The notes below the pieces were generated by a model. That model had not been told where the DNA came from. It worked only from the letters and a program-made list of their open reading frames with translations, and ran no database searches. A stretch of 64,000 nt of DNA from Tubulanus polymorphus (Eukaryota; Animalia; Nemertea). A program made the translations under genes and the position numbers. This document shows, piece after piece, positions 58,001 through 61,000 of this stretch; position 1 is the first letter of the stretch, and the number at the start of each line of letters is the position of its first letter. The stretch lies in contig NC_134028.1 of NCBI RefSeq assembly GCF_964204645.1, positions 5,146,001 to 5,210,000 on the forward strand, read 5' to 3'.

Positions 58001-61000
58001 ACTTGTGCCTTACAAAAAATGTGTTACTGGAAAACTCTAGTCTAGAAAAAAAAATCAGGGAGAACTTGAGGAATTTAGATAATGCTATTGACCCCGTGTT
58101 TCTTTATCAGTACATGATTTCATGAAAAATGAATGAATTGTAACATTCTAAACCAAGACATTTCTCTAATTCGCTCGGGGAATTATATATAATCACATGG
58201 AAAAATCAGGGAAAATTCACATTTTCAAATGGGCGGAAAGTGTCCACCTGGCCTGTTACTTTTGCCTCAGCCTTACTACTATGAACCCTGTGTCACTGGA
58301 GTAATAGATTTACGCAGGACTGAGACTGAGCATTTTCTGGTTTTACTTTTTAGGCGTCGTTTCAACAGTCGTACCGGATTCACAGTTTAAGATATTTATT
58401 GGTGGATTGCCGAACTACTTAAACGAGGATCAGGTAAGTGATTCCGCGATAAGTGTTTATGGGGTGTATGGCTCAGCAGGCTGACAGATTCAGCGGTGAC
58501 TACTGTAAAGTTTGCGCTTCATCCATAAAATTAAGTCTGAATACAAGACTTGCGGGTAATCGGACTTTGACCGCGTAAACTTCATCAGTCAGTCGATTTA
58601 GGGAACCGCTCGTATTTTTCTGCGATATGTGTGTGCACTTGTTAACAGGTTAGGTTTGTTTGTAACTATCCCTCTTTCTCTCTCGACGGTAAGTATGATC
58701 AAGGTAGGTGAGAATTGCAGGTCACGAAGCAAGGGGAATAATGTGTGTGTCAACCAGAGGCCGACCTCTCCCACAAAGTCTACCGACAGGCTTTCTAGTT
58801 TCAGGGTTTATTTCAGCCTCTTCGTTCGAAGGTTTTGCCCCATATTTCTATCTTTTCGAAAACTAGCGACTAAACATCGAACGCGATGTGTATTTTCCAG
58901 CTGCATTTTTTCAGGAAATCTCTTGCAGGCGTTTCTTTTCAGACCCAAAAACGAATTCATTTAATTTGGAATATTTCGTTTCTCTTTCATTCGATCTATT
59001 ATTTACGTAAAATATGTTTTCAGGAGGAAATACTAATTTTGATAATATGATTATTATATTTCGATTTCTCTTATTGTTCGTCGGATTTCGAAGCATTGCG
59101 AGACACACGCTTCCGTTGCAGGTTCTATTTTCAGGCGTTTGATAGTAAAGAACTTGAAAATAATCTGCTCAGCGCCGAAAAAAAAGATATCGATGCTCTA
59201 GATATAACAAATATCGTTTAATCTTCATTCGAATATGAAAAGAATAATTCAAAATAGAAACTTCCGAATAGTGATATGAAATTATAATGTAGAAACTTTA
59301 CCCATTATAAATTAACGCTGAATTTTAGTACTTTATCGAAGGCCTTTGGGTAAACACAACACATTATTATACATAATGCTTTATTACTGTACAGGCTGTT
59401 ATTACAAATACTGATCATATTTATTTTTTCTTCCCCAATCTTTGTACGTAGCTTAGGGGAAGAGGGTGATAAAATAAAGCCAACCCTCATGTTGTTAAAC
59501 ACACAATACTGTCTCGTGACATCCGTGGCTTGAAAGGCAAGTGGTTTGAGTGTGTCTATGTTCAATCTCTCAAAATAAAAATTGTCTTTTTGTGAAAAAA
59601 AACGCGTTCTGTGAAACAGTAAGTAGAAAAAATGCGCTAAACGAATTCTAAAATCAGAGCTCCGGGACTTTCTCTGAATTTCTCATCTTACTGGGTTTCT
59701 CAGAAAATGTGTTACACTTACGCGGTATCTTGTTTCACAATAATAACTTGTCATAGTGCAAATATTTCTACACATCTATTCGAGCGTATATAGGGTACCG
59801 TTTCATAAGTACCAGTTATCAAATTTGGTGGATTTTAAGTTGACCGGCAGCATTCTTTACATATATAAGAACATAAAGAATGATTATTGCGGTAGTGACT
59901 GTAGCATATTTTCGTGAGATGCCTTATAGAAATTATTTTCTGTAGCTCTGATGTAGATATAGAGAGAAGGGGGCCCCTAGTGTGACAATAAATAAGTCCC
60001 ATGTTCTACTCATATATTGAGTTTAGACACTATTTAGTTGGTGGTGTAATATTGAGTTGCATGTTATTGATGAATCACGGATCTTTACATTATTTGTTGG
60101 CTCGCCGCAGTAAGTTTCGTTCCGATGATCAAATTACGGATTGCTTCGTGATTCTGAATTCGTACGGATATTCGATTCGTAAACAATAAAAGATACTTCA
60201 TAGATCCAGCAAATATGTTGTAAAGGTCCCGGTTGTAAGCTTCGGTAAATAACACGTATTTCTTTTCTTTCAATTGTAGGTGAAGGAATTGCTGATGTCG
60301 TTCGGGCCATTGAAAGCATTTAATCTCGTGAAGGACAGCGCTACTGGTTTGAGTAAGGGATACGCGTTCTGTGAATATCTGGATGTTAGCATTACCGATG
60401 TGGTAAGTATCATCAGAAAGTACCTAATTTACTGGTACTACTAGAAAATTATTTAAACATTTGATTCGTCCTTATTTGGTACTGGTCTGCTTGCAAAACC
60501 ACTGAAGTCGGATGAATAATTTTAAAATCATTTAATTCCTAATTTCAGGCGTGTCAGGGGTTGAACAATATGCAACTGGGAGATAAGAAATTGATTGTCC
60601 AACGAGCTAGTGTCGGCGCGAAGAATGCACAGGTAAGATACATCAACTTAACAGAAATCTTTTCGCTTGCTTCGGGATGGTTTTTTCAACGGCATGAATT
60701 TGTATTTATAGCAAGCAGCAGTTCAGCTACAGGTGCCGGGGTTGAATCTAAGTTCGGCGAGTCAGACATTGACCGAGGTTTTGTGTTTGATGAACATGGT
60801 CGTACCAGAAGAGCTGGAAGATGAAGAAGAGTACGAAGGTAAACGATACGTACCGAAACAAAAAAGGCGCGCTTTTCATGAAAAAACAAAATACGATCAG
60901 CGATTCATGCATAAATGTGTTTCGATATTTCAGATATTTTAGAAGATGTTCGCGAAGAATGCAGTAAATATGGACTAGTGAAGAGTATTGAAATTCCGCG

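Follow-up and report, generated by a model that had tools for sequence, protein, structure and literature searches.

Intron 9 of the gene for the large U2AF subunit (U2AF2) of Tubulanus polymorphus is retained whole in a part of the transcripts, beside the spliced form, and it contains a cryptic exon whose splice signals are also present at the same position of the gene in bivalve-like, annelid-like and insect loci. The explanation that we favour, though only modestly, is that intron 9 is held unspliced by this conserved decoy exon together with an array of acceptor look-alikes, by means of which U2AF would limit its own supply, and that the hairpin near the donor of the same intron, on which the first-pass annotation of this region had centred, is a bystander.

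The sequence analysed is a 64-kb stretch of DNA, which is referred to below as the window. In this window U2AF2 consists of 14 exons and occupies positions 55068-61448 of the + strand. The borders of its exons were set from the sequence and the joints between them were seen in the spliced run X3. The product of exon 6 (48 aa) shows 100% identity to the U2AF 50 kDa subunit-like protein of Tubulanus polymorphus, and the next named matches are to bryozoan, annelid, brachiopod and mollusc proteins. The features on which the analysis is based are listed in Table 1. A few other observations on this gene may be recorded here. The acceptor of exon 12 (60709-60720) is followed by more AG triplets, and the observed joint is at 60712. 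Intron 8 carries at 57853-58290 a high-copy MITE-like repeat with perfect 12-nt inverted ends (57853-64 and 58279-90), over which the depth in X1 and X8 is about 50-140 times that of the flanks. In intron 7, the segment 57120-57530 consists, by inspection, of about three diverged tandem copies of a unit of about 170 nt, and it shows many differences between individuals.

Table 1. Features of U2AF2 exon 9, intron 9 and exon 10, with their positions in the window.
Feature	Position	Strand	Basis or remark
Coding exon 9 of U2AF2 (second RRM begins here)	58354..58433	+	translation; spliced joints at either end in X3
Intron 9 (1846 nt; no other intron of U2AF2 is longer)	58434..60279	+	retained in some of the transcripts
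Small 5-bp hairpin	58480..58494	+	best fold of the isolated stretch; probability 0.05-0.92 depending on context
Unbranched rod hairpin with a core 10-bp helix (58508-17/58573-82)	58498..58594	+	predicted; z -4.08, 0/200 shuffles
Putative 40-nt exon of the first-pass annotation	58649..58688	+	acceptor weak; possible donors at 58689 and 58704
Array of nine TTNCAG acceptor look-alikes	58799..59134	+	9 in 350 nt
Conserved cryptic acceptor	59409..59457	+	alignment of 13 sequences
Predicted helix of the pyrimidine tract with a purine run just past the acceptor	59420..59473	+	z -2.06, 10/200 shuffles
Cryptic (decoy or poison) exon	59457..59536	+	80 nt (85 nt with the upstream AG)
Conserved GC donor, AAG/GCAAGT	59534..59542	+	9/9 consensus positions; 11 distinct orthologous introns
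U2AF2 coding exon 10	60280..60402	+	translation; joints

The retention of intron 9 is seen in X2 and X3, two runs from different studies, which, like every other run listed, are not recorded as RNA and were taken as such solely because GT..AG joints coincide with the borders of exons. In X2, one contig extends over 58406-60306 at a depth of 316, alongside an exon 9-10 spliced joint at 838, and in X3 four contigs of intron 9 have depths of 3.3-5.7 versus 79 on the exons, depths which are a poor measure of level and carry neither strand nor compartment, so that they establish the presence of the retained form and not its percentage. One of the intron 9 contigs in X3 continues into exon 10, and one covers exactly 58455-58611, around the hairpin. 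For the other introns, the bin located wholly within intron 10 is at 0 in X2 and the bins of intron 13 are at 3.6-7.1, and in X3 the bins that lie within introns 7 and 13 are empty, contigs of this kind showing presence and not absence. Among the listed joints of X2 (5 of 5) and X3 (15 of 23), none leads into the cryptic exon or into the 40-nt exon, it being a property of contigs that rare forms are dropped. When intron 9 is retained, the reading frame meets a stop 16 codons into the intron, the first in-frame stop being the TGA at 58482-58484. The depth of two further runs, X4 and X5, is higher at 58381-58700, and this was set aside, as the loose ends in both of them resemble a proximity-ligation bridge and we take both to be DNA. 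The run X10 gave no cover on the intron. The donor of intron 9 agrees with the consensus at 9 of 9 positions and is the best of the gene, and the pyrimidine fraction of its acceptor (0.77) is at the top of the range of 0.50-0.77 seen for the 13 real acceptors of the gene. Since both terminal sites are strong, weak ends do not explain the retention of this intron, and due to this a cause internal to the intron is likely. Slow splicing of what is the longest intron of the gene could alone also explain the retention.

The internal features that bear on this point are the cryptic exon, which lies 855 nt past the hairpin, and the array of acceptor look-alikes. The acceptor of the cryptic exon is made up of a branch-point-like TACTGAT at 59409-15, a pyrimidine tract and a tandem AG (TAG at 59449-51 and CTTAG at 59452-56) whose two members are five bases apart, and in the alignment of 13 sequences the columns at the branch-point motif and at the tandem AG are invariant. 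The exon contains an in-frame stop with either choice of acceptor. The sequence of its GC donor, AGGCAAGT, is present once in the window when both strands are counted, and farther on, at 59619, there is another donor-like site, of the GT type. The nine TTNCAG motifs of the array are a number that was reached in 0 of 200 shuffles; on the antisense strand there is 1, and this is the sole place with at least six such motifs on either strand of the window. In an Rfam search of 59300-59700 with E up to 10, the 6 matches were weak and lay far under the gathering score.

The distribution of these signals was studied in introns of other organisms. A pattern made from the end of exon 9 identified 105 metagenome loci, 57 of which continue into intron sequence; in 56 loci the intron is at the same position (28 of these introns being complete), and L046, in which it starts 7 nt later, was dropped. 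The segment 59400-59472 aligns to L015, L020, L027 and L037 with E values of 5e-5 to 2e-4, and the cryptic exon gives local alignments with z of 5-15 in 5 of 29 representative orthologous introns. The signals form a module with the pattern of a branch-point-like motif, a pyrimidine tract, YAG-C-N-N-AG-G and then AG/GCAAGT 35-126 nt later. This module (viz. the acceptor motif and the GC donor) is present in 13 of the 56 orthologous-intron loci, representing 11 distinct sequences, in 53.8 kb, versus 0 occurrences in 473.7 kb of other sequence from the same 105 loci, where the patterns for both the module and the array were chosen after viewing the window and the first matches. The spacing between acceptor and donor varies over the range given above while both sites stay fixed, which points to selection on the splice signals and not on a peptide. 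The carriers of the module include an insect locus (L039, with 100% identity to insect proteins over 87 aa) and a locus whose only named match is a springtail protein at 85% (L066), as well as bivalve-like and annelid-like loci, these last as judged against comparison proteins that are nearly all lophotrochozoan; for L020, L037 and L027 bivalves are the best among 28 named proteins, nearly all lophotrochozoan. The module is absent from 18 of the 28 complete orthologous introns, among them those of a separate lineage and several that are very short, and from the first 4,002 nt of L067. Of the 11 module-bearing introns, 8 have the array at 0/200 shuffles versus 0 of 8 introns tested without the module, and it is weak or absent in the three other module-bearing introns (L068, 3/200; L044, 19/200; L002, 144/200). 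Inclusion of the cryptic exon would lead to a stop or a frameshift in most of the orthologues, and a second GT donor is found in 7 of 11.

Some of these introns show further arrangements. In the arthropod-like loci L066, L068 and L074 the array comes after the cryptic exon instead of before it, and there is a GT immediately past the tandem acceptor. The GC donor motif is present at intron +215 in L012, L025, L054 and L063 without the tandem-AG acceptor. The lineage of L003, L023 and L059, which is without the module, has by inspection its own conserved blocks at about +65 to +350, with arms able to pair at about +70 and about +230 (about +200 in L023 and L059) and one block closed by TCTAGA on both sides. 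In the window, the pyrimidine tract of the cryptic acceptor is predicted to pair with the purine run that follows it (Table 1). Six lophotrochozoan-like sequences have a 10-bp consensus for this helix, in which two-sided changes are absent, and there is no consensus across all 13 module sequences; it may be regarded as a candidate gate, which could also arise from two separately conserved signals.

Based on these results, the retained intron is more than 1 kb long, it contains a conserved cryptic exon with an acceptor and a donor, and it offers several competing sites, viz. the tandem AG, the GC and GT donors and the array of nine, all of which is what would be looked for in an intron held by a decoy exon. 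In the mechanism that we propose, free U2AF, when plentiful, would bind along the array and at the cryptic acceptor, where part of the pyrimidine tract is predicted to be base-paired, and the GC donor of the cryptic exon would be occupied by U1. The real donor and acceptor would then be tied up by these internal sites and splicing would not go to completion, so that the intron would be retained, and occasionally the stop-codon exon would be spliced in instead, with no U2AF2 protein resulting either way. When U2AF is scarce, the terminal sites alone would be used. The binding of U2AF, the feedback and the nuclear detention are steps which we infer. An alternative which is possible, and to which we give clearly less credence, is that the cryptic exon is a true poison exon, which is spliced in and removed by nonsense-mediated decay, the retention of intron 9 being a by-product or an intermediate. 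The full acceptor and the 9/9 GC donor of this exon would suit such a role, as would the in-frame stop by both acceptors in the window and the stop or frameshift in most orthologues, and decay would conceal the product from the contigs. However, retention of the whole intron is abundant in X2, and the tandem AGs and the GC and second GT donors fit competing sites of the decoy type, as these are described in PMC6097662.

The hairpin is considered next. The first-pass annotation had described a strand-specific RNA structure with a three-way junction just downstream of the exon 9 donor and regarded it as a cis-regulatory element that gates a cassette exon. All of the arms that it named are present where it had placed them: 58479-89 and 58584-94 form 10 of 11 pairs, with one G-U pair and one A-A mismatch, and 58508-17 and 58573-82 form 10 of 10, with one G-U pair. 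The fold also sits as described relative to the gene, starting 45 nt inside intron 9 and downstream of the donor of exon 9, which is the ninth coding exon, and the putative exon (40 nt), said to be about 55 nt downstream, begins 55 nt past its end. The comparison with shuffled sequences that had been proposed as a check likewise came out in favour of a fold, as the 116-nt stretch has an energy of -36.9 kcal/mol, with z of -4.02 and 0 of 200 shuffles reaching it. The three-way junction, on the other hand, is not the favoured fold in the predictions, since the proposed structure has -23.4 kcal/mol, or -30.4 kcal/mol with its helices enforced, versus the -36.9 kcal/mol of the best fold. In six contexts and at three temperatures, the mean pair probability does not exceed 0.11 in the outer helix or 0.08 in the inner hairpin (AAGUCU/AGACUU) and is 0.00 in the side hairpin (CAGCGG/CUACUG), and of the helices described only the 10-bp helix 58508-17/58573-82 is predicted to be stable, with 0.97-0.99. 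The structure predicted around it is an unbranched rod, whose helices have probabilities of 0.79-0.97 (basal), 0.97-0.98 (middle) and 0.91 (upper) in four contexts. The specificity for the sense strand, to which alone the G-U pairs had been ascribed, is unsupported, since the antisense strand folds nearly as well (-34.2 kcal/mol, z -3.50) and its best fold has a similar number of G-U pairs (3 of 38 pairs, versus 2 of 38 on the sense strand). Further, the fold is good but not rare, as about 2% of windows equal it: in a scan of the first 36 kb of the window on the + strand, which is noisy because each window was compared with 14 shuffles, 17 of 900 windows of 116 nt have z below -4 and 35 of 900 have z below -3. 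Stronger-folding 116-nt windows are located at 10481, 13521-13800, 15081, 20841-21440 and 29401 (z -4.7 to -9.3, with 14 shuffles). When the hairpin region was examined for long-range pairing with eight splice-signal segments, in a comparison made with no shuffle control, the only duplexes obtained were long and gapped.

With regard to its identity, the statement that the hairpin belongs to no known family agrees with the Rfam results, in which there was no match at the gathering score in the window and none at E up to 10 in 57800-59400. It is also not a dispersed MITE, as judged from read depth and the 64-kb window, for the DNA depth of X1 and X8 (at 85% likeness) is flat over it and the only match in the window of a model built from the hairpin is the hairpin itself. 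It would be most improbable for the hairpin to be an intron-encoded small RNA (a snoRNA, microRNA or ribozyme) or the remnant of a foldback element, the least probable of the readings considered here. It is stable on both strands, as expected of a decayed inverted repeat, the X3 contig restricted to 58455-58611 surrounds it, and its antisense strand has CUGAUGA and CUGA near the ends; against this, there is no Rfam match, the DNA depth is flat unlike that over the intron 8 repeat, the sense strand is by inspection without a C box or an H/ACA layout, and the stem contains an 11-nt bulge. On the minus strand of 58490-58588 the CUGAUGA near one end and the CUGA near the other are like C and D boxes, and an assignment of the antisense CUGAUGA to a hammerhead or a C/D structure was rejected by inspection, as there is no GAAA in register and no terminal stem adjoining the boxes.

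No homologue of the hairpin was found in 29 orthologous introns, all from distant relatives, a comparison in which a nemertean-specific role of the hairpin would not show. The local alignments have z of at most 2.5, the best match of a covariance model over 85 kb of orthologous introns has an E value of 0.35 (L020), and folding at the 5' ends of the 29 introns is not stronger than in 53 control segments (p 0.79). This best match, on the sense strand, coincides with the place of a 5-bp R-CUG-N/N-CAG-Y helix, which in the window is the small hairpin of Table 1 and is seen at intron +43 in L015, at +56 in L020 and, with a longer loop, at +40 in L037, its outer pairs differing among the four sequences. 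In the window, the 3' arm of this helix resembles an acceptor and lies some 60 nt away from the donor. The helix was not counted as a conserved part, as the same test gives at least 3 hits for 6 of the 64 possible cores, its probability in context is 0.16 in the window and 0.00 in L015, and the four sequences have no consensus fold. These results bear on a further reading, viz. that the hairpin works in the retention switch of this lineage alone, e.g. as a donor-proximal silencer or a protein platform, 45-160 nt from the donor, which we consider to be unlikely. The rod is stable in every context tried and lies near the donor of a regulated intron, the CUG/CAG helix recurs at +40 to +56 in the three introns named above, and no differences are listed within the stretch in other individuals (in an X1 contig, 0 of the 22 listed differences, of 23 in all, fall in 58453-58875). 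However, the results on helix cores, context and consensus fold just described count against it, as does the proportion of windows that fold equally well, and the lack of polymorphism was rejected as evidence, since 55000-56900 is equally clean, i.e. nearly difference-free, in X1. The hairpin is likely a bystander in this intron.

The acceptor of the 40-nt exon that the hairpin was thought to control has a pyrimidine fraction of 0.50, at the bottom of the range for the 13 real acceptors of the gene, and the rod contains neither splice site of this exon. The best alignments of the exon have z of 3-4 in 3 of 29 orthologous introns and are probably to CT runs, a CT run having been seen for L039 only. 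We regard it as highly improbable that a sense-strand three-way junction gates this exon: the arms do exist, and the 40-nt piece has an AG and an 8/9 donor, its inclusion shifting the frame to a stop in exon 10, but the junction lies at least 6.5 kcal/mol above the best fold, the antisense strand folds nearly equally, the acceptor is weak, the hairpin has no orthologue in the introns compared, and the alignments of the exon are of the kind just noted. The first-pass annotation was right in looking to this intron for regulation, whereas the fold that it selected was the wrong element.

U2AF2 recognises almost every 3' splice site, so that its level must stay steady. To our knowledge, C. elegans is the main case in which such feedback by the factor on the transcript that encodes it has been documented. 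We put forward, quite tentatively and as a proposal that may well prove mistaken, a U2AF2 feedback switch inherited from an ancestor of molluscs, ribbon worms and insects, in which a fixed tandem-AG acceptor, a GC donor and the array would read free U2AF, to which the lophotrochozoans would have added a helix keeping the pyrimidine tract concealed as long as there is no excess of U2AF2, and in which the donor-proximal hairpin would be a ribbon-worm tuning part. The fixed splice signals of the module in bivalve-like, annelid-like and insect genes are exact sites that can be mutated in a tractable insect or mollusc, and the module makes a protostome-ancestral origin of U2AF2 control testable. 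The hairpin by itself matters little unless it is conserved in close relatives.

In the literature consulted there was no description of the hairpin or of the conserved module, an event which supplementary tables of retained introns or decay targets could list. A decoy or feedback exon is of a known kind, as seen in C. elegans uaf-1 and in human decoy exons. The uaf-1 gene of C. elegans reportedly has, according to MacMorris, Zorio and Blumenthal in 1999 (PNAS 96:3813), a stop-codon exon rich in matches to the 3' splice site, for which feedback is said to have been proposed, and these matches are said to lie within a spliced-in exon that blocks export. As reported, this case shares with the present one a large-subunit U2AF gene that has a stop-codon exon and a cluster of acceptor matches, and it differs in that here the matches are upstream of the cryptic exon, outside it, and the whole intron is kept; none of the loci compared was identified as nematode. 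An intron-retained isoform of uaf-1, which goes up about ninefold on fasting, is described in PMC10755965. The available portions of PMC2762039, PMC12709185, PMC12385487, PMC12179342 and PMC11346455 do not treat U2AF2 feedback.

In Sf3b3, according to PMC11162794, an intronic structure conceals the branch site of a poison exon. The likeness to this system is limited to an intronic RNA structure near the poison exon of a splicing factor, for unlike the structure described there the hairpin studied here has no homologue in the orthologous introns compared and covers no splice signal of either exon, and the helix 59420-73 pairs the pyrimidine tract, leaving the branch-point motif 59409-15 outside. 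The ultraconserved element of ARGLU1 yields, according to PMC5389617, isoforms with a retained intron and with an alternative exon. In both genes a single conserved intronic element would account for these two outcomes, but unlike the ARGLU1 element as presented there, only splice signals and no long sequence block are conserved in U2AF2. A close likeness is to the decoy exons in the large retained introns of SF3B1 (intron 4), OGT, ARGLU1 and DDX39B, which bind U2AF and drive retention, such cryptic exons with several splice sites blocking excision (Parra et al. 2018, PMC6097662). As in those genes, a large intron with strong terminal sites is retained in a gene for RNA processing and contains a conserved cryptic exon with several competing sites. 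In contrast to the decoys described there, the host gene here encodes the decoy-binding factor U2AF2 itself, the donor is of the GC type, the decoy is known from sequence, and its conservation spans both the lophotrochozoans and the arthropods.
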